DNA of 43,102 nucleotides from Escherichia phage AV104, in sequence record OR352935.1, one strand, 5' to 3'. Every line of letters starts with the position of its first letter. The stretch's first letter is position 1. This document shows positions 4,305-37,691 of this stretch, piece after piece. The notes below the pieces were generated by a model, which was not told the origin of the DNA, did not search any database, and saw only the letters and a list, made by a program, of their open reading frames with translations. Made by a program: the position numbers and the translations under genes.

Positions 4305-4308
4305 TAAG

Positions 4309-4336
4309 AGGCCCCATAATGGGGCCTTAGATTTTT
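4309..4336. terminator. bidirectional hairpin terminator between convergent genes
   Basis: AGGCCCC-ATAAT-GGGGCCT stem-loop followed by TAGATTTTT. Confidence 0.55.
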
Positions 4337-4641
4337 CCTATTAGATTTTTAATTCTGTCGCGTTCTATTCTTTTCCCTTCTTCTACTCCCTCATTGAAGT
4401 ATCTTTCTACATCATCCTTATTGACCTTACGAACTGCTGCGCCCTCTTTATATAGCTCTTGATTGTCGCGCAATACCTTAATCTTAGCGATTATTTCATT
4501 AAAAGGTGCGTCAGCACGTATTTTGAGCATAGACCTTACCTGTTCTACGAACCATGCAAAATTAGGCTTTTTTGATAATTTCTCTCTTAAAACAGCGTTC
4601 TCTTGTTCCGCTTTTGTGGCGCGAGCACGATAATCAATCAT
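4327..4641 (-). CDS. hypothetical protein (reverse-strand accessory gene)
   Basis: 104 aa, Lys/Glu-rich; its own promoter motif lies at 4681-4710; opposite orientation to flanking structural genes. Confidence 0.5.
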   Translation of the reverse strand: MIDYRARATKAEQENAVLREKLSKKPNFAWFVEQVRSMLKIRADAPFNEIIAKIKVLRDNQELYKEGAAVRKVNKDDVERYFNEGVEEGKRIERDRIKNLIGKI

Positions 4642-4680
4642 TTTAGCAAACCTCTATCTTCATTAAACAGCACCAATAAC

Positions 4681-4710
4681 TGAATAGTACCCTATTATAT
4701 CGGGGCATGT
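4681..4710 (-). promoter_or_regulatory. promoter/operator motif (TGAATAGTACCCTATTATA) for gene 4327-4641
   Basis: minus-strand reading gives TATAATAGGGTACTATTCA, the same motif found in front of the early genes. Confidence 0.4.
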
Positions 4711-4778
4711 AAACTATTTATTTACGTATTCCAGTTATTCCCCTCAATTGTAAATGTTGGAATAAACTATTCGAATAG

Positions 4779-4807
4779 TTGACTTTTCACTGAAAATATG
4801 CTAAGCT
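4779..4807 (+). promoter_or_regulatory. sigma70-like promoter (TTGACT-17 bp-TAAGCT with extended TG), copy 1
   Basis: TTGACT at 4779-4784, 17 bp spacer, TGcTAAGCT; near-identical to 35881-35909; preceded by perfect palindrome ACTATTCGAATAGT (4766-4779). Confidence 0.5.
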
Positions 4808-4814
4808 CCACCTG

Positions 4815-4925
4815 AGCTTGTGAAGTATGAACAAGCGACCGCGGCGCGGGCAGGTAACGGAGCGGGACGTAAGTCCTGAGTGTAGTTACGCTGACGCGTT
4901 CGGAAGGGCCATACTCTATTGCTTG
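4815..4925 (+). ncRNA. candidate structured RNA element, copy 1 (paralogue of 35917-36026)
   Basis: about 110 nt conserved between two loci with shared blocks (GCGACCGCGG, GAGTGTAGTT, TTCGGAAGGGCC) and differing but complementary hairpin arms; no ORF longer than 9 codons; downstream terminator at 4988-5016. Confidence 0.3.
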
Positions 4926-4987
4926 TGTAAAAAGTAACTGGTTTACTGAGATTACGCCGTTTCTATGTTTAAATGATAAGGCCTAGC

Positions 4988-5016
4988 GCCCCGCTTTATG
5001 GCGGGGCTTTACTTAT
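4988..5016 (+). terminator. rho-independent terminator
   Basis: GCCCCGC-TTTATG-GCGGGGC stem followed by TTTACTT, just upstream of the spanin RBS. Confidence 0.5.
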
Positions 5017-5031
5017 CGAGAAAGGAGAAAC

Positions 5032-5418
5032 ATGAATCTTAAAGCAACTGTCGTAGCAGGAGCATGTTTCATCATCCTGTTATACACGCACGGCTACTAT
5101 CAATACCGCAGCGGCTGGAACGGAGGCAGGGCTAATCTAGTTTCGCAGCAACAGCAGAAAGCACAGGCTGAGTTAGCGAAGAAAACACAACGGCAGCAGC
5201 AGGACGAATCAAAGGCCGCCGCCGCTGACAACGAAGGCAAGACGAAATCAGAGGTGATTACCCGTGAAGTCGTTAAGTACATTAAAACGCCTGGCCGCAG
5301 CGTGTGCACTTTCGACGATGCTCGCGTCCTGCTCAAGTCCCGCGCCGTCGCAAACGCCAATTCCATCCCCGGATACGACGATGATGCAGCCGCCATGCAA
5401 ACTGGCCGCGCCAAGTAG
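5032..5418 (+). CDS. i-spanin (Rz-like)
   Basis: 128 aa; N-terminal transmembrane segment (VVAGACFIILLY) then Gln/Ala/Lys-rich coiled-coil region; overlapping out-of-frame lipoprotein ORF. Confidence 0.6.
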   Translation: MNLKATVVAGACFIILLYTHGYYQYRSGWNGGRANLVSQQQQKAQAELAKKTQRQQQDESKAAAADNEGKTKSEVITREVVKYIKTPGRSVCTFDDARVLLKSRAVANANSIPGYDDDAAAMQTGRAK

Positions 5419-5527: not shown

Positions 5528-5609
5528 TTGCCTTGCATGTTGGAATAATTTATTCTTGACATGTAAATCCGGGTGGCCCGGATTCCAACGTCCAGGGGAC
5601 ATACCGACT

Positions 5610-6313: not shown

Positions 6314-7363
6314 ATGGCAATTACCACTATCGGCGATATCGTAACTGGCAACATCCCGGTCCTGGCGTCTTATATGACCGAGGACCCGGTAGAAAAAACC
6401 GCGTTCTTTCAGTCAGGTATTTTGACCCCGACTCCGTACGCTGCCGAGATTGCTCGCGGCCCGTCCAACGTCGCTAACATTCCTTTCTGGAAAGCGATTG
6501 ATACCTCTATCGAGCCTAACTACTCGAACGACGTATACCAGGACATCGCCACCCCGCGTAACGTGCAGACCGGTGAGATGATGGCCCGCGTTGCATACCT
6601 GAACGAAGGTTTCGGTCAGGCGGACCTGACTGTCGAACTGACCAGCCAGAACCCGCTGCAATCTGTGGCTTCTCGCCTGGATAACTTCTGGCAGCGCCAG
6701 GCACAACGCCGTCTTATTGCTACCGCGCTCGGTCTGTACAATGACAACGTAGCCGCTACCGACGCATACCACGAGCAGAACGACATGGTAATCGACGTGT
6801 CCTCTACTCTGGGCTTCGACGCGGGCGCGTTCATCGACGCTACCCAGACTATGGGTGATGCGCTGATGGGTAACGGCGGTGAAGTGCTGGGTGCTATCGC
6901 GATGCACAGCTTCGTATATGCGCAGGCCCGTAAGCAGCAGCTTATTGACTTCATCAAAGACGCTGACAACGACACCATGTTTGCCACCTACCAGGGCTAC
7001 CGCGTGATTGTTGACGACAGCATGACTGTAGTTGGTACTGGCCCGACCCGTAAGTTCATCTCCATCATCTTCGGCAACGGCGCTATCGGTTACGGTGAAG
7101 GCAATCCGGTCAAACCACTGCACTACGAGTATGAAGCGTCTCGTGGTAACGGCGGCGGCGTAGAAACCCTGTGGACCCGTAAGACCTGGTTGATGCACCC
7201 GCTGGGTTACAGCTTCACCAGCGCGGTAATCACTGGCAACGGCACCGAGACTATCGCCCGCTCTGCTTCATGGCAGGACCTGGCGAACGCCTCCAACTGG
7301 AACCGTGTGGTTGACCGTAAGCATGTACCGATTGCCTTCCTGGTAACTGGTGTCGGGGCTTAA
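6314..7363 (+). CDS. major capsid protein
   Basis: 349 aa ORF directly after scaffold, followed by a strong terminator; position and size. Confidence 0.75.
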   Translation: MAITTIGDIVTGNIPVLASYMTEDPVEKTAFFQSGILTPTPYAAEIARGPSNVANIPFWKAIDTSIEPNYSNDVYQDIATPRNVQTGEMMARVAYLNEGFGQADLTVELTSQNPLQSVASRLDNFWQRQAQRRLIATALGLYNDNVAATDAYHEQNDMVIDVSSTLGFDAGAFIDATQTMGDALMGNGGEVLGAIAMHSFVYAQARKQQLIDFIKDADNDTMFATYQGYRVIVDDSMTVVGTGPTRKFISIIFGNGAIGYGEGNPVKPLHYEYEASRGNGGGVETLWTRKTWLMHPLGYSFTSAVITGNGTETIARSASWQDLANASNWNRVVDRKHVPIAFLVTGVGA

Positions 7364-7378
7364 GGTTAAGCTATAATC

Positions 7379-7405
7379 GAGAGGGACTTCGGTCCCTCTT
7401 TTCAT
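7379..7405 (+). terminator. rho-independent terminator after capsid gene
   Basis: GAGAGGGAC-TTCG-GTCCCTC stem followed by TTTTCATTT. Confidence 0.65.
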
Positions 7406-9474: not shown

Positions 9475-9866
9475 GTTTCGCGCTCGATGTCTCTAAGTTC
9501 GTGGAAAAGGCGAAGAAGAACCCCGAGAAGGTGATGCGTCAGGTGTCTATCAAGTTGTTTTCCGCTATTATAAAGGCGAGTCCGGTAGATACTGGCCGCT
9601 TTCGTATGAACTGGATGGCGTCTGGCGGTACTCCTGCTTCCGGGGTTACAGATGCTACCGATAAATCAGGGAACACCGCAACCGGAAACGCTACAAGTTT
9701 CGTACTGAAAGCCGCCGACTGGCGCGAGTTCACGCTGACAAATAATCTACCGTATGCGCAACGGCTGGAGTATGGTTGGTCGCAGCAAGCGCCACAAGGA
9801 TTTGTCCGGGTGAATGTGTCTCGCTTTCAGCAACTCATTAACGAAGAAGCCAATAAGGTGAAATGA
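9471..9866 (+). CDS. neck / tail completion protein (putative)
   Basis: 131 aa, ATGA coupling to the upstream gene; synteny. Confidence 0.4.
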   Translation: MSFALDVSKFVEKAKKNPEKVMRQVSIKLFSAIIKASPVDTGRFRMNWMASGGTPASGVTDATDKSGNTATGNATSFVLKAADWREFTLTNNLPYAQRLEYGWSQQAPQGFVRVNVSRFQQLINEEANKVK

Positions 9867-10279
9867 TGGGCTACTTTGAGGACTTAACCAAAGCGTTTGA
9901 CGTGCCGCTGGTAGCCTTTGGAACCACAAACGGCATCAAGGTTGCGCTTGAAAATATCGACGCGCCGACGTCAACAGATACGCCGTATCTGGCAAGTTAC
10001 ATGTTACTTGCGGACACCGAGCAGGCGGATTTGTTCTTCACGGAACAACGCTCTGGTATTTATCAGGTTGACATTAACTACGCATCGGTGAAAGGTAGCG
10101 CGCCAATCAATAAAATGGCAGACTTACTTAACACGGCGTTTAAAGCAGGTAAGTCATTTTCACGTAACGACATCTGCGCCGAGGTTCAATCGGTTAGCCT
10201 GGGGCCGCTGATTGTAGAAAACGGATGGGCCAAACGGCCATTGTCAATTAACTTTATCGCATTCACCAAGAGGCTGTGA
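9863..10279 (+). CDS. tail terminator protein (putative)
   Basis: 138 aa, ATGA coupling; directly upstream of the putative major tail protein. Confidence 0.4.
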   Translation: MMGYFEDLTKAFDVPLVAFGTTNGIKVALENIDAPTSTDTPYLASYMLLADTEQADLFFTEQRSGIYQVDINYASVKGSAPINKMADLLNTAFKAGKSFSRNDICAEVQSVSLGPLIVENGWAKRPLSINFIAFTKRL

Positions 10280-11452: not shown

Positions 11453-11478
11453 AAGGCCCCTTTCGGGGCCTTTTTCTT
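11453..11478. terminator. bidirectional rho-independent terminator
   Basis: AAGGCCCC-TTTC-GGGGCCTT flanked by A-tract upstream and T-tract downstream. Confidence 0.65.
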
Positions 11479-13735: not shown

Positions 13736-13768
13736 TGAATAGTACCCTATTATATTGGGGTGTGCAAG
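13736..13768 (-). promoter_or_regulatory. promoter of reverse island (TTGCAC-17-TACTAT containing TATAATAGGG motif)
   Basis: minus-strand reads CTTGCACACCCCAATATAATAGGGTACTATTCA, almost identical to the promoters at 36190 and 37632. Confidence 0.45.
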
Positions 13769-26509: not shown

Positions 26510-26824
26510 TTATAATTCCTTATATTGTTGGGGTATGTGCTTACTATAATAGTCTGCTATTAGGGTGTCAATCTGTTTTATCGAACCAACGACAAAAACA
26601 TTCGCGCCACGTTTACGCATCCGCTCGTGCTCGCGTAACTGGTGTGGGTCTGGCTTCGTGCTTTCATCTTTCTTAACCTCAACGAACCAGATGATGCCGC
26701 CGGGGAGGATTACCAACAGGTCGGGCGCTCCGTTTCGGCCCTCATACACTATCTTACGAACGAGGCCCCCCAGGGCCTCGAATCGGTCTTTCGCGTATTT
26801 CTGTACGCGGCCCTCTTTAGTCAT
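26510..26824 (-). CDS. VRR-NUC domain nuclease
   Basis: PD-(D/E)XK-like motif (GAPDLLVILPGGIIWFVEVKK ... HQLREHE); ATG at 26824 coupled to upstream tiny ORF (track start 26839 is TTG). Confidence 0.7.
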   Translation of the reverse strand: MTKEGRVQKYAKDRFEALGGLVRKIVYEGRNGAPDLLVILPGGIIWFVEVKKDESTKPDPHQLREHERMRKRGANVFVVGSIKQIDTLIADYYSKHIPQQYKEL

Positions 26825-30294: not shown

Positions 30295-30349
30295 CGTGAT
30301 TTCTCGCTTTTAAGTTTACTCCGGGAGCTGCCCGGCCAGTGATTAGAAC

Positions 30350-30368
30350 TATAATAGCTAACTATTCA
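30350..30368. promoter_or_regulatory. promoter/operator motif TATAATAGCTAACTATTCA
   Basis: same quasi-palindromic motif as at the early promoters; lies upstream of gene 29662-30294 (minus). Confidence 0.35.
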
Positions 30369-30595
30369 GAAGTCAAATAAAATTTTGCAATAGTGAGTAT
30401 GTTCTCGAAGTCACGCATGTTAGCAGGTTCAAATTCATCCTCTATAGGTTCGTATCGCATCATCGTACCGTTCAGGAACGTGAACGATTCCGAATGTAGA
30501 TAGCCGTTCCAGCGCCATACCATCACAAAATCTTTATCAGTCGGCATTTCATTTACTTGAATCATTCCAAATCCTCCTCTGTTACTTGATTCCAC
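30362..30595 (-). CDS. hypothetical protein
   Basis: 77 aa ORF. Confidence 0.4.
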   Translation of the reverse strand: MESSNRGGFGMIQVNEMPTDKDFVMVWRWNGYLHSESFTFLNGTMMRYEPIEDEFEPANMRDFENILTIAKFYLTSE

Positions 30596-32616: not shown

Positions 32617-32648
32617 TATTTATTCTCCTCTCGTTTGGTATGGGTAAC

Positions 32649-32667
32649 TATAATAGCTAACTATTCA
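32649..32667. promoter_or_regulatory. promoter/operator motif TATAATAGCTAACTATTCA in divergent control region
   Basis: quasi-palindrome; on the minus strand followed by leader AAACGAGAGGAG and the ATG of gene 32616. Confidence 0.45.
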
Positions 32668-32694
32668 TTATGTCAATGGGCTTTTCTAAAATAA

Positions 32695-32716
32695 TTAATA
32701 TGGTACTATTCACATA
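32695..32716 (+). promoter_or_regulatory. promoter-like motif (TTAATATGGTACTATTCA) upstream of HTH gene
   Basis: degenerate copy of the early motif 25 nt upstream of the RBS of gene 32741. Confidence 0.35.
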
Positions 32717-32740
32717 TCAACTGACTAAGGAGTAACTGAC

Positions 32741-35880: not shown

Positions 35881-35909
35881 TTGACTTTTACTTAAAAATA
35901 TGCTAAGCT
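35881..35909 (+). promoter_or_regulatory. sigma70-like promoter (TTGACT-17 bp-TAAGCT with extended TG), copy 2
   Basis: near-identical to 4779-4807. Confidence 0.5.
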
Positions 35910-35916
35910 TCACTGA

Positions 35917-36026
35917 GCTTGTGAGATATCGCAAGCGACCGCGGAGCGGCAGGGAACGCAACGCGTGCCATTAGGCACTTGAGTGTAGTTCCGCTGGCGC
36001 TTTCGGAAGGGCCAAAGTCTATTGTT
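35917..36026 (+). ncRNA. candidate structured RNA element, copy 2
   Basis: paralogue of 4815-4925 with compensatory hairpin (GUGCC-AUUA-GGCAC here versus GGGAC-GUAA-GUCCU in copy 1); followed by a large hairpin at 36091-36150. Confidence 0.3.
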
Positions 36027-36090
36027 AATCCCGCCTAAATACCCAAGTCACTGATAATTAAAAGTTTCTATAGTTGCCGTAAGCAAGGTG

Positions 36091-36150
36091 GAGAGTACTT
36101 CACTCCGCTGGGGTGGGCTAACGCCCACCCACTGCGTTGCGTACTCTTTT
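36091..36150 (+). terminator. complex hairpin / possible terminator
   Basis: GGGTGGGC-TAAC-GCCCACCC inner stem, outer GAGAGTAC/GTACTCTT pairing, then TTTT. Confidence 0.35.
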
Positions 36151-36189
36151 AAGAAACGAAAGAATCACAACGGCAACGTAACTTTTCTC

Positions 36190-36218
36190 TTGCACACCCC
36201 AACATAATAGGATACTAT
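36190..36218 (+). promoter_or_regulatory. early promoter (TTGCAC-17-TACTAT, spacer contains CATAATAGG)
   Basis: conserved with 37632-37660 and minus-strand 13736-13768; followed by conserved leader TTATCGAAACGAGA..GAGGAG. Confidence 0.45.
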
Positions 36219-36252
36219 TCACTTATCGAAACGAGACAGAGGAGTGAGGGTT

Positions 36253-37624: not shown

Positions 37625-37631
37625 AATTTAC

Positions 37632-37660
37632 TTGCACACACAGATATAATAGACTACTAT
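37632..37660 (+). promoter_or_regulatory. early promoter (TTGCAC-17-TACTAT, spacer contains TATAATAG)
   Basis: same architecture and leader (GTTATCGAAACGAGAGGAG) as 36190-36243. Confidence 0.45.
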
Positions 37661-37691
37661 TCAGTTATCGAAACGAGAGGAGAGAGAGAAG

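Follow-up and report, generated by a model that had tools for sequence, protein, structure and literature searches.

The window analysed here, 43,102 nt in length, is the complete genome of a Kagunavirus (Guernseyvirinae), a virulent coliphage, in which a promoter of the form TTGACT-17-TGnTAAGCT and the ~115 nt 3' of it occur twice, aligning at 4779-4925 (copy 1) and at 35881-36028 (copy 2). A sequence-only reading had proposed such a paralogous cassette, and alignment and a repeat finder both place the two copies as it claimed; the repeat finder returns a block on the promoter side (4779-4811 / 35881-35913, 85% identity) and one on the 3' side (4877-4921 / 35980-36024, 89% identity), and the shared blocks quoted in that reading are found in the sequence. 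Copy 1 stands at the head of the late structural (head-and-tail) operon, with its Rz-like spanin, scaffold and capsid genes, and 3' of the terminator closing the packaging/head operon (4308-4328 here, with the counterpart in phage Jersey at 7187-7207). Copy 2 precedes a rightward operon of 11 kb that holds early, lysis and packaging genes. The leftward ORFs adjoining each copy encode unrelated products, a 104-aa protein of unknown function and an AlpA/excisionase-like helix-turn-helix protein, and their paralogy was thus rejected.

Both promoters have the elements of an extended -10 sigma-70 promoter, namely the -35 hexamer, 17-bp spacing, TGn and a -10 hexamer with A2 and T6. On the + strand, these are TTGACT (4779-4784), TG (4799-4800) and TAAGCT (4802-4807) in copy 1 (4779-4807), and TTGACT (35881-35886), TG (35901-35902) and TAAGCT (35904-35909) in copy 2 (35881-35909). 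The cassette promoter is predicted to fire, and transcription of copy 1 would start at G4814 or A4815. The promoter proposed earlier goes unflagged in a simple promoter scan, since TAAGCT agrees with TATAAT at only 3/6 positions, but its -35 hexamer, 17-bp spacing and extended -10 TG are kept in all promoter variants; the base following TG varies (TGC, TGA or TGG in Kagunavirus, TGT or TGC in Jersey-type phages, TGA in type 3). From 4328 to 5032, no promoter candidate other than the cassette promoter was found. Two operator-like palindromes adjoin the -35 hexamer of copy 1 (4760-4779), GAATA-AAC-TATTC at 4760-4772 and the abutting arms ACTATTC and GAATAGT at 4766-4779, with centres at ~-48 and -41.5 relative to the predicted start at 4814; copy 2 carries neither. 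A pattern search gave 6 matches where 1.2 were expected, and a GAATA-N3-TATTC palindrome also lies 5' of the homologous promoter in phage Jersey and at Cornellvirus-type loci. A -10-like hexamer just past the start, a lead towards a sigma-dependent pause, reads GAGCUU in Kagunavirus and appears as a second TACGCU in Jersey; it is absent from type 3.

Each copy folded alone gives the same architecture (z = -2.3 for copy 1 and -3.9 for copy 2), a shared RNA of ~95 nt made up of a 5'-terminal hairpin (P1), a junction of 1-2 nt, an irregular 65-nt stem-loop (P2) and a tail, AAGGGCC...UAUUG. In copy 1, on the + strand, P1 (4816-4836) pairs GCUUGU (4816-4821) with ACAAGC (4831-4836) across a 9-nt loop, and folding and pair counts define a junction GA (4837-4838) that leads into P2 (4839-4903). 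The basal part of P2 comprises CCG/CGG, a bulged C4842, GGCGC.G/CGCGUU with two G-U pairs and an internal loop; its middle part comprises CAG/CUG, GUAAC/GUUAC and an asymmetric loop of GGAG (4859-4862) opposite AGUGUA (4879-4884); and its apical hairpin (4863-4878) is CGGGAC-GUAA-GUCCUG. The single-stranded tail (4904-4925) contains AAGGGCC (4904-4910) and UAUUG (4917-4921). The copy 2 RNA (35917-36028, + strand) repeats this succession of P1 (35917-35936, GCUUGUGA-GAUA-UCGCAAGC), junction GA, P2 (35939-36006), AAGGGCC and UAUUG, and differs from copy 1 by C-G to A-U and U-A to G-C changes and by an exchanged apical helix. The hairpins pointed out in the sequence-only reading, GGGAC-GUAA-GUCCU (4864-4877) and GUGCC-AUUA-GGCAC (35965-35978), both form part of this fold. 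GCUUGUG occurs at 4816 and again at 4922, and Jersey has GCUUUCAG twice; the 3' arm of P1 pairs well with the downstream repeat of its 5' arm only in copy 1 of Kagunavirus, and copy 2 lacks this pairing.

Among unpaired bases, conservation is highest at the P1/P2 junction, at the base of P2 and in the tail. A4838 in the junction and C4842, G4859, A4861, A4879, G4880 and G4882 in P2 are invariant, as are A4905, G4906, G4907, U4917, A4918, U4920 and G4921 of the tail across the Kagunavirus and Jersey types; in type 3, the tail reads AAGGGYC in most leaders and GAGAGGC in Hafnia phage TS33. The distance between the predicted 5' end and P1 is 0-3 nt in each of three genus-level types (~3 nt in copy 1), and P1 has 97.5% of its cells paired, with a U-A to U-G change within Kagunavirus and an entirely different helix sequence in Jersey-type phages. 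Outside Kagunavirus the assignment of P1 is less certain, because its 5' arm overlaps the expected start site in the Jersey type and type 3. Two further pairings were considered and rejected: a switch between tail and terminator through AGGGCC/GGCCU, which appears in the minimum-energy fold, is peculiar to the AV104 genome (other Kagunaviruses have AAGGACUAG), and a pseudoknot between GAGU (4878-4881) and ACUC (4913-4916) would involve position 4914, which varies freely and uncompensated.

That an RNA structure rather than a protein is conserved here had been proposed from the two copies. In related phages the pairing is kept: over 22 distinct sequences, 96.4% of pair cells hold standard pairs, compared with 80.2% in shuffles (a level reached by 0/500 of them), and 16/29 pairs have changed on both sides, with compensatory changes both within and between genera. 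Slid-partner controls leave 30-41% of cells paired, and an alignment not fitted to the model still has 5 pairs changed on both sides. The conserved G-U pairs, which read as A-C mismatches on the opposite strand, fix the RNA on the + strand, and the covariance models match this strand only, one of them (R1) scoring copy 2 at 91 bits (E ~1e-21). A protein-coding role was rejected, since a 36-codon ATG ORF in copy 1 (4827-4937) is not kept in copy 2, where an ORF of 24 codons has a different start, and since the core, 63-69 nt long among relatives, changes length in frame-shifting steps that are not multiples of three; the earlier statement that no ORF is present is thus not strictly correct, but neither ORF is conserved. 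The element is confirmed as a structured non-coding RNA, with pairing kept, strand specificity and coding constraint absent, and the 'hypothetical protein' that many records annotate across it is probably an artefact.

Homologues occur across Kagunavirus (180 phage records) and Jerseyvirus (268), lying 5' of the Rz-like spanin, scaffold and capsid genes, and probably also at the equivalent place in Cornellvirus-like phages. Roughly 460-500 deposited genomes of Kagunavirus, Jerseyvirus and their relatives carry the element; pathogenic E. coli and Salmonella were the targets against which many of these phages were isolated. Searching the divergent loci with a profile built on sequence alone gave no match; types 3 and 4 were spotted by eye and through a weak covariance search run without filters. 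The RNA is >95% conserved within each type, and its loops and bulges differ between genus-level types. Copy 1 is the ancestral copy, and copy 2 is a recent transplant, present in ~42/180 Kagunavirus records, which stands in place of the promoter and ~230 nt of leader seen in phage K1G and lacks the upstream operator. Core variants have moved between both positions (the core is the same in L054 and L005, but its surroundings differ), and the module of promoter and RNA is portable. An origin in the host was rejected: none of 5,426 complete E. coli genomes contains a match to the cassette.

The sequence-only reading also noted a terminator at 4988-5016, and copy 1 is indeed followed by a terminator-like site (4988-5007); copy 2 lacks a canonical one. 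The hairpin at 4988-5016 on the + strand, GCCCCGC-UUUAU-GGCGGGGC followed by UUUACUUAU, has 8 pairs, 7 of them G-C, and a direct, though interrupted, U-tract, as an intrinsic terminator would; its stem is conserved, with one compensatory variant (GCCCUGC...GCAGGGC), and it ends 15 nt 5' of the start codon of the Rz-like spanin (5032), the first gene of the structural operon. The Jersey type and type 3 have an equivalent hairpin without a good U-tract, and the leader terminator is thus not a constant partner of the RNA. A transcript from the 4779 promoter would have to pass terminator-like sites at 4988, 7379 (7379-7400) and 11453 (11453-11472). Intrinsic terminators within the operon are kept in different genera, for instance the post-capsid one (7379-7400 here, 9859-9876 in Jersey). 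In the leader of copy 2, a long composite hairpin at 36091-36148 on the + strand (GAGAGUAC...GUACUCUU, with an inner GGGUGGGC-UAAC-GCCCACCC, then UUAAG) has a 3' arm that runs into UUUU, and was unflagged by the terminator scan; it is a piece of the ancestral early leader, and phage K1G, with no copy 2, has it too. Directly 5' of the first early gene (36244) lies a second-class promoter-like site (36190-36218, + strand, TTGCAC-17-TACTAT; repeat families D4 and D11), so copy 2 need not be the sole promoter of the rightward operon.

We propose, tentatively and with a probability of about 35%, that the leader RNA enables the host RNA polymerase to transcribe past the terminator at 4988-5016 and past later ones, in a placement like that of the put elements of phage HK022 but not as a homologue of put. 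The cassette would join an extended -10 sigma-70 promoter to a structured leader RNA whose target, in cis, is the transcribing polymerase. P1 and P2 would fold as they emerge from the exit channel, in the first ~90 nt, and recognition would be via the invariant junction, the P2 base, the internal loop rich in purines and the AAGGG of the tail. The folded RNA may then remain on the elongation complex, by itself or together with host factors, and confer resistance to pausing and termination, so that the complex would pass 4988-5016, 7379-7400 and 11453-11472 and the scaffold, capsid and tail genes would be expressed. In the ~1/4 of Kagunaviruses in which the core promoter and RNA were copied 5' of the rightward operon, the same property would be conferred on the 11-kb unit. 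The position of the 5' end, the contact with polymerase and antitermination itself we infer, and the Kagunavirus RNA-seq paper reports at gene level only.

Several observations count towards this antiterminator leader: the RNA always lies directly 3' of the promoter; its position is conserved, with the cassette the sole promoter candidate between 4328 and 5032; three terminator-like sites lie on the path of the transcript; the module is portable; and a PHROGs scan of 20 small ORFs gave no antiterminator-annotated family. The invariant unpaired bases at the junction, the base of P2 and the tail count in the same direction, when compared with put, in which the beta' zinc-binding domain binds where the two stems bifurcate (PMC9378689). 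Counting against it, no canonical + strand terminator was found in the rightward operon past copy 2, from 36 to 43 kb, and the conservation of terminators within the late operon suggests that these remain functional, which sits uneasily with a polymerase fully resistant to termination; the poor U-tracts of the Jersey-type and type 3 hairpins, the differences in loops and bulges between types and the failure of a put covariance model to find the element count against it as well. As to whether the locus yields a discrete RNA of ~200 nt or a leader acting on polymerase, both of which had been put forward, we lean towards the leader, because, between 4308-4328 and 4988-5007, nothing else was found that could be a promoter of the scaffold and capsid genes.

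The same argument bears on a trans-acting sRNA of ~200 nt from copy 1 (4814 to ~5012) and ~235 nt from copy 2 (35916 to ~36150), abundant and acting as a decoy against host defence or as a regulator of a host or phage target. Taken together, a promoter, a structured domain and a terminator hairpin do make up the anatomy of an sRNA gene, and two copies would raise its dose; read-through must nevertheless be substantial if the genes past copy 1 have no other promoter candidate, the 3' hairpin is a poor terminator in the Jersey type, in type 3 and in copy 2, and the segment between core and 3' hairpin is unrelated between the two copies, all of which leaves this explanation very unlikely. An effect on mRNA stability or processing is unlikely too, but has more in its favour. 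P1 would shield the late mRNA from 5'-end-dependent decay, and P2, with ~23 bp, would be an RNase III-type site or a protective structure. A 5'-terminal stem-loop geometry stabilises E. coli mRNAs such as ompA, and P1, at 0-3 nt from the predicted 5' end, has it; P2 may resemble phage RNase III sites such as T7 R1.1 in its length and asymmetric internal loop; and the conserved terminators within the operon are compatible with such a role. A stabilising hairpin, on the other hand, needs no specific sequence, whereas the junction, the bulged C, the loop purines, AAGGG and UAUUG are invariant across genera. Furthermore, RNase III cleavage right at the 5' end would strip off the protective triphosphate together with P1, and processing gives no reason for the fixed-distance coupling to the promoter.

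The same invariant unpaired purines are typical of protein-recognition sites, and thus speak for a factor-dependent switch in the style of N/nut or Q/PR', in which the promoter would be constitutive and most transcripts would stop at 4988-5016 (~200 nt), until a phage protein made earlier binds leader and polymerase, allows read-through and so times the late genes. The terminator lies ~175 nt past the predicted start and just 5' of the first late gene, which matches lambda PR', where the 6S RNA and the terminator tR' lie between the late promoter and the late genes. The high conservation of the RNA within each type, together with loops and bulges that differ between types, is what co-evolution with a phage partner would produce, and since the host polymerases of the different phage types are nearly identical, a phage-encoded partner fits these differences better. 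Against this, no antiterminator, of the Q family or otherwise, is annotated among the PHROG families matched by the 20 small ORFs (most match families of unknown function, three match none), neither leader has a boxA, and the Jersey-type and type 3 leaders have no good terminator; the timing could equally stem from the operator palindromes at the promoter, and copy 2 lies 5' of early genes, where dependence on a phage protein is less sensible. We regard such a switch as decidedly unlikely. An element acting as DNA, be it a protein-binding inverted repeat, a single-strand initiation signal or a replication origin, is hardly credible: P1 is indeed a DNA inverted repeat spanning the start site, and the cumulative GC skew has its minimum near copy 2, but the conserved G-U pairs and strand-specific models described above point to RNA, the fixed linkage with a promoter speaks for a transcript, and copy 2 is absent from most relatives. 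A replication origin was rejected in particular, as the GC skew tracks gene orientation and makes no turn at copy 1.

A bolder form of the antiterminator proposal, possible but doubtful, is that the leader represents a second, independent class of processive antiterminator made of RNA only (or of RNA and a host factor), unrelated to put, that drives the late operons of Guernseyvirinae and is portable. If this were true, put-like control of the host polymerase would have evolved more than once, and beyond a few lambdoid phages. An unrelated RNA in a put-like placement would offer a new and compact way of shielding synthetic operons from terminators, an RNA-polymerase interface new to structural work, and a handle on how late genes are run in phages without a recognisable polymerase, sigma factor or antiterminator. 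Even if its function proved modest, mRNA stabilisation for example, the element defines a covariation-supported RNA family that is absent from Rfam.

Comparison with Rfam 15 gave no family at gathering score anywhere in the whole 43,102-nt stretch, and nothing relevant around either copy at E up to 10; the likeness to families such as the processive antiterminator EAR and phage-associated motifs lies in being a cis-regulatory leader RNA supported by covariation. Rfam holds no put model, and the HK022 region likewise gives no match. A put covariance model (R3) was built from 7 put homologues, with the invariant blocks CGAACGGCGCG, UAAACCAUGCGUCGG and GGCGGGYUCAGG..GA.CGGCAAU and stems I and II. 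As positive controls, putL scores 99 bits and putR 38 bits (E ~1e-8) with this model; run without filters, it gives no match at 4812-4925, at 35913-36028 or at the Jersey-type and type 3/4 loci, and its best matches in the whole stretch have E >= 0.07 and lie away from both copies. Conversely, the PL-PR region of HK022 yields no meaningful match to the covariance models of the new RNA. Homology to put is thus ruled out, and the analogy rests on placement and rough architecture. A weak local similarity to the core of put stem II, at a score reached by 1/500 shuffles for copy 2, 49 for copy 1 and 290 for Jersey, involves positions that are not structurally equivalent, and the Jersey type lacks it.

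The put/nut analogy of the sequence-only reading is therefore retained for placement after a promoter but not at sequence level, where, in addition to put, boxA is lacking (GCUCUUUAACAA / CGCUCUUA, + strand, <=3 mismatches, none at 4808-5031 or 35910-36243, with a genome-wide count equal to chance); nor is the placement that of an early operon, as copy 1 heads the late structural one. With lambda N/nut and rrn antitermination the element would share a promoter-proximal RNA signal that reprogrammes the polymerase over a whole operon, the signalling being predicted here, but boxB is a hairpin of 15 nt compared with an irregular stem of 65 nt, and no N-like protein was identified among the ORFs scanned. 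The layout of lambda PR', 6S and tR' is reproduced, with a putative strong promoter (4779-4807), an untranslated leader of ~175-200 nt, a terminator (4988-5016) and late genes from 5032, whose expression would require read-through. The lambda Q system needs no conserved RNA fold, Q reading promoter DNA and a sigma-dependent paused complex, whereas the new element conserves an RNA fold. Elements of the ompA and T7 R1.1 types offer parallels for the hairpin at the extreme 5' end and for the duplex of about two helical turns with an asymmetric internal loop; the invariant single-stranded bases, the tail and the fixed coupling to a promoter set the new element apart from them.

Put itself offers a parallel in placement. 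HK022 putL and putR are cis-acting antiterminator RNAs that need no protein factor; they suppress termination through the beta' zinc-binding domain, and rpoC mutations block this. To our knowledge, no other phage RNA has been shown to reprogramme bacterial RNA polymerase unaided by a dedicated protein, and we know of put only from a small group of lambdoid phages. As in HK022, there are two paralogues per genome, each 3' of a promoter that heads a long operon, and a dedicated phage protein is not evident. The first helix begins at ~+3, as putL does (PMC9378689), and two adjacent stem-loops are separated by 1-2 unpaired bases, one of them a long irregular stem with conserved non-canonical regions; this is a likeness of architecture alone and is insufficient for membership. 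Unlike put (~72 nt), the new RNA spans ~95-110 nt and has an extra apical hairpin on its second stem and a conserved 3' tail, and whereas put serves the early operons of temperate lambdoid phages, the new RNA belongs to the virulent Guernseyvirinae, in which its ancestral copy heads the late operon.

The promoter-plus-RNA cassette that a sequence-only reading had reported twice in this genome is indeed present in two copies. Copy 1 (4779–4925) aligns with copy 2 (35881–36028) through the promoter TTGACT-17-TGcTAAGCT and about 115 nt that follow, with high identity in blocks, small indels between them and unrelated flanks. Each copy folds alone into the same shape (z = −2.3 for copy 1 and −3.9 for copy 2), which in copy 1 comprises, on the + strand, a 5′-terminal hairpin, P1 (4816–4836, GCUUGU...ACAAGC), a junction of two bases, P2 (4839–4903), which is a long stem-loop of irregular shape, and a single-stranded tail, AAGGGCC, 3′ of P2. 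The shared blocks are broken, as had been proposed, by changes that preserve pairing: from copy 1 to copy 2, one C-G pair turns into A-U and one U-A pair into G-C, and the apical helix is swapped in its entirety. The terminator expected after copy 1 is seen as a terminator-like hairpin at 4988–5007 with the tail UUUACUUAU. No canonical terminator was found after copy 2, whose leader carries a long composite hairpin (36091–36148, + strand) and, between this and the first gene, a separate promoter-like site, TTGCAC-17-TACTAT (36190–36218, + strand). The statement that no ORF is present stands in part: copy 1 has a 36-codon ORF, which copy 2 does not keep.

The pattern is that of a conserved RNA structure rather than a protein, as compensatory changes, G-U pairs and variation in core length all indicate. 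A covariance model built from Kagunavirus copy 1 sequences picks up copy 2, its divergent forms and the Jersey types, and every one of these hits is on the + strand. In an alignment of 22 distinct sequences, which was fitted to the model and hence favours structure, standard pairs fill 96.4% of pair cells against 80.2% after shuffling (0 of 500 shuffles reach the observed value), and 16 of the 29 pairs have changes on both sides; sliding the partners by 1–3 columns reduces pairing to 30–41%. An unfitted MAFFT alignment of Kagunavirus sequences only still has 5 pairs with changes on both sides. Three pair positions are mostly G-U and would read as A-C mismatches on the opposite strand; the functional strand is thus fixed, which speaks against a site in duplex DNA. 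Core lengths of 63, 64, 65, 66, 67 and 69 nt among relatives exclude a coding constraint. Because indels break the frame and the pairs covary, the small hypothetical protein annotated over the element in many GenBank records (e.g. Jersey gp08, L038:7265-7456) is probably spurious. The Kagunavirus and Jersey types share fourteen unpaired bases that never change: A4838 in the junction, the bulged C4842, the loop bases G4859, A4861, A4879, G4880 and G4882, A4905–G4907 in the tail, and U4917, A4918, U4920 and G4921 3′ of it. The apical loop of P2 is free to vary. P1 lies wholly downstream of the predicted start in Kagunavirus; in the Jersey type and in the Cornellvirus-like type 3 the position 7 nt past the −10 hexamer falls within its 5′ arm, and the transcribed P1 of these two types may be only 3–5 bp (GCU/AGC, GUUC/GAAC). 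We conclude that the late operon of Guernseyvirinae carries, at its 5′ end, a conserved family of structured and strand-specific RNAs, which is present twice in the window.

By blastn, the window groups with complete genomes of Kagunavirus (Guernseyvirinae), virulent E. coli siphoviruses of about 43 kb. Copy 1 has more than 90% identity in 179 of 180 matching phage-database records, mostly E. coli and Salmonella Kagunavirus-like phages, and copy 2 as query finds 222 places in the same number of records, so that about 42 records hold two copies. A covariance search of whole genomes gives one copy each in K1G and Jersey, which have another promoter and leader at the copy 2 position. Variants, gathered by an IMG/VR promoter scan and a scan for loci around capsid-protein relatives, are numerous and include divergent copy 2 forms in Golestan and at loci L005 and L033; one core type occurs in copy 1 context in L054 and in copy 2 context in another phage, L005, which demonstrates exchange between the two positions. 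In the Salmonella phage Jersey, the copy 1 position is occupied by a diverged homologue, with the promoter TTGACT-17-TGtTACGCT, an unrelated P1 sequence, a P2 with the same CCG-C-GG..GCG base opening onto a 12-bp helix with an apical hairpin of its own, and the Kagunavirus tail, UUCGGAAGGGUC...UAUUGCUU; this type is found in 268 records. Type 3 (Cornellvirus FSL SP-031, Enterobacter phage phiEap-2, Hafnia phage TS33) is a probable member of the family. Its promoter is TGGACT-17-TGaTAACCT (−35 TTTACT in TS33), and in its RNA P1 is short, CCGC/GCGG closes P2, and the tail is AAGGGYC in most members; a broader model matches phiEap-2 at the expected place (E = 0.016, filter-free search of 75 kb), and single-sequence folds are unconvincing. 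Type 4 (Shemara, TS6, SE1, Pantoea phage AH01 and similar Guernseyvirinae; L106, L107, L108, L109 and L091) has another, strongly structured leader in the corresponding position ahead of the spanin gene, very stable in TS6 (L108:505-640, z = −5.65) and folding no better than shuffles in AH01. Only a sub-motif, a hairpin followed by UUGAGU, is common to it and the Kagunavirus RNA. This leader could be distantly related or could stand in functionally for that RNA, and we do not claim it for the family.

Several further occurrences were noted. An unannotated Jersey-type element sits between ORFs p21 and p11.5 in a fragment of Salmonella phage MB78 (X87092.1/L110 837-981). None of 5,426 complete E. 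coli genomes contains the cassette; its only match in the plasmid collection, with two matching places, is CP088689.1 (44,086 bp), which is non-mobilizable, comes from a human blood E. coli isolate, is as large as a Kagunavirus genome and probably represents a phage entered among the plasmids. An AT-rich viral IMG/VR contig of 6.7 kb without a phage-database match, 3300047554_000310 (L007:4318-4462, − strand), has the identical 29-bp promoter pattern, TTGACTTTT-N5-AAAATATGCTAAGCT, before a leader that is unrelated to the cassette RNA and also starts with a hairpin. Downstream of the divergent Golestan copy 2, a run of CACT repeats, CTCACTCACTCACTCACTCACTCACTC (L001:37803-37832), takes the place of the long hairpin in the window. 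The P1 5′-arm sequence recurs just after the tail in copy 1 (GCUUGUG at 4816–4822 and 4922–4928), as does GCUUUCAG in Jersey (L038:7311-7318 and about 7395-7402), and fainter traces of the repeat are seen in L033 and type 3; copy 2 is without it.

The gene map, taken from the annotated relatives Golestan, K1G and Jersey, has leftward replication genes and two rightward (+ strand) blocks. One runs from about 36.2 kb over the window end to 4.3 kb (small early ORFs, holins, endolysin, terminase, portal and head genes) and is closed by a strong + strand terminator (4308–4328; Jersey 7187–7207); the other opens at 5032 with an Rz-like spanin, after which come scaffold, major capsid, neck and tail genes. 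The ancestral, copy 1 position is constant, between the packaging/head-block terminator and the spanin, scaffold and capsid genes. We found no promoter candidate in 4328–5032 other than the cassette's; if there is none, the structural genes with the highest expression would depend on the promoter predicted at 4779 and on passing the 4988–5016 hairpin. Within their operon, a strong intrinsic + strand terminator after the major capsid gene (7379–7400; Jersey L038:9859-9876) is conserved between genera, presumably setting the ratio of capsid mRNA to downstream-gene mRNA, and another lies at 11453–11472 (+ strand). The 7379–7400 terminator bears on whether the operon's polymerase truly resists termination.

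Perfect palindromes at 4760–4779 (GAATA-AAC-TATTC, overlapping ACTATTC|GAATAGT) abut the −35 of the copy 1 promoter. GAATA-N3-TATTC also lies 5–6 bp upstream of the homologous −35 in Jersey-type (L038:7256-7268) and Cornellvirus-type phages (L083, L104, L081, upstream of TGGACT), and copy 2 is without it; it has the look of an operator through which a dimeric regulator would control the late promoter. A further occurrence of this palindrome (GAATAATTTATTC) separates the o-spanin gene from the scaffold gene (5543–5585; equivalent place in Jersey, L038:8012-8024), where it adjoins a hairpin, AAUCCGGG-UGGC-CCGGAUU, and a TTGACA that matches the consensus. The site, which lacks a good −10 hexamer downstream, may be a regulated promoter inside the operon or may form an RNA structure. 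A second promoter-like family, TTGCAC/TTGACA-17/18-TAYWRT with conserved ...ATAATAG...ACTATTCA, heads early and replication operons on both strands (26543–26571, 30347–30376, 32646–32718, 36189–36236 and 37631–37678; − strand, 4681–4712 and 13736–13767) and has the half-site ACTATTC in common with the late-promoter palindrome.

How the RNA acts we infer from three features. The order at copy 1, of predicted promoter, structured RNA from the 5′ end, terminator and long operon, is by analogy the anatomy of a processive antitermination leader; the invariant bases cluster at the junction; and copy 2, in which only core promoter and RNA were copied, the upstream palindromes were left behind, and the insert took the place of the promoter that K1G has there and of about 230 nt of its leader, supports a self-contained module. 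Together these lead us to rank first, at a tentative probability of about 0.35, a cis-acting effect of the leader RNA on elongating polymerase. Against antitermination, the operon-internal terminators are conserved across genera, which suggests that they still attenuate, the 3′ hairpin of the leader is a poor terminator outside Kagunavirus, and no obvious terminator is seen in the 7 kb of rightward operon that follow copy 2. The RNA might instead stabilise the mRNA or be cut by RNase III, an unlikelier role; a 5′-terminal hairpin is exactly what stabilises E. coli mRNAs, and P2 has the dimensions of an RNase III site. Somewhat more doubtful is that read-through requires a phage protein, with the 4988 terminator serving as a timing switch. 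A discrete RNA, one of the options of the sequence-only reading, here taken as trans-acting, seems improbable, and a DNA-level element, at odds with the fixed strand, is very hard to credit.

The RNA family is absent from Rfam 15 and from the literature searched, in which the sole Kagunavirus RNA-seq paper gives gene-level profiles only. Rfam 15 also has no model for put, the antiterminator RNAs of HK022, as HK022 itself gives no match. We located putL in HK022 via a primer published with a cryo-EM study and aligned it with six further put homologues; the resulting covariance model scores putL at 99 bits and putR at 38 bits, and matches neither cassette copy, nor a Jersey-type sequence, nor types 3 and 4. 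Conversely, the HK022 PL-PR region yields no meaningful hit to models of the new RNA. A local likeness, GAGCGCGGCG.GG..CAGG..GAACG.CAA, links copy 2 with the invariant core of stem II in put. Of 500 shuffles, 1 reaches the score in the case of copy 2, compared with 49 in that of copy 1 and 290 in that of Jersey; the bases that match do not sit at equivalent places in the two structures, and we treat this as a curiosity. Neither leader has a boxA, and none of 20 small ORFs matches an antiterminator-annotated PHROG family. On these tests the RNA falls outside the put, nut and Q systems, and what stands of the analogy drawn earlier is a likeness to put in placement and gross architecture. In put, the β′ zinc-binding domain binds at the bifurcation of the stems (PMC9378689), which the clustering of invariant unpaired bases at the two-stem junction of the new RNA recalls.
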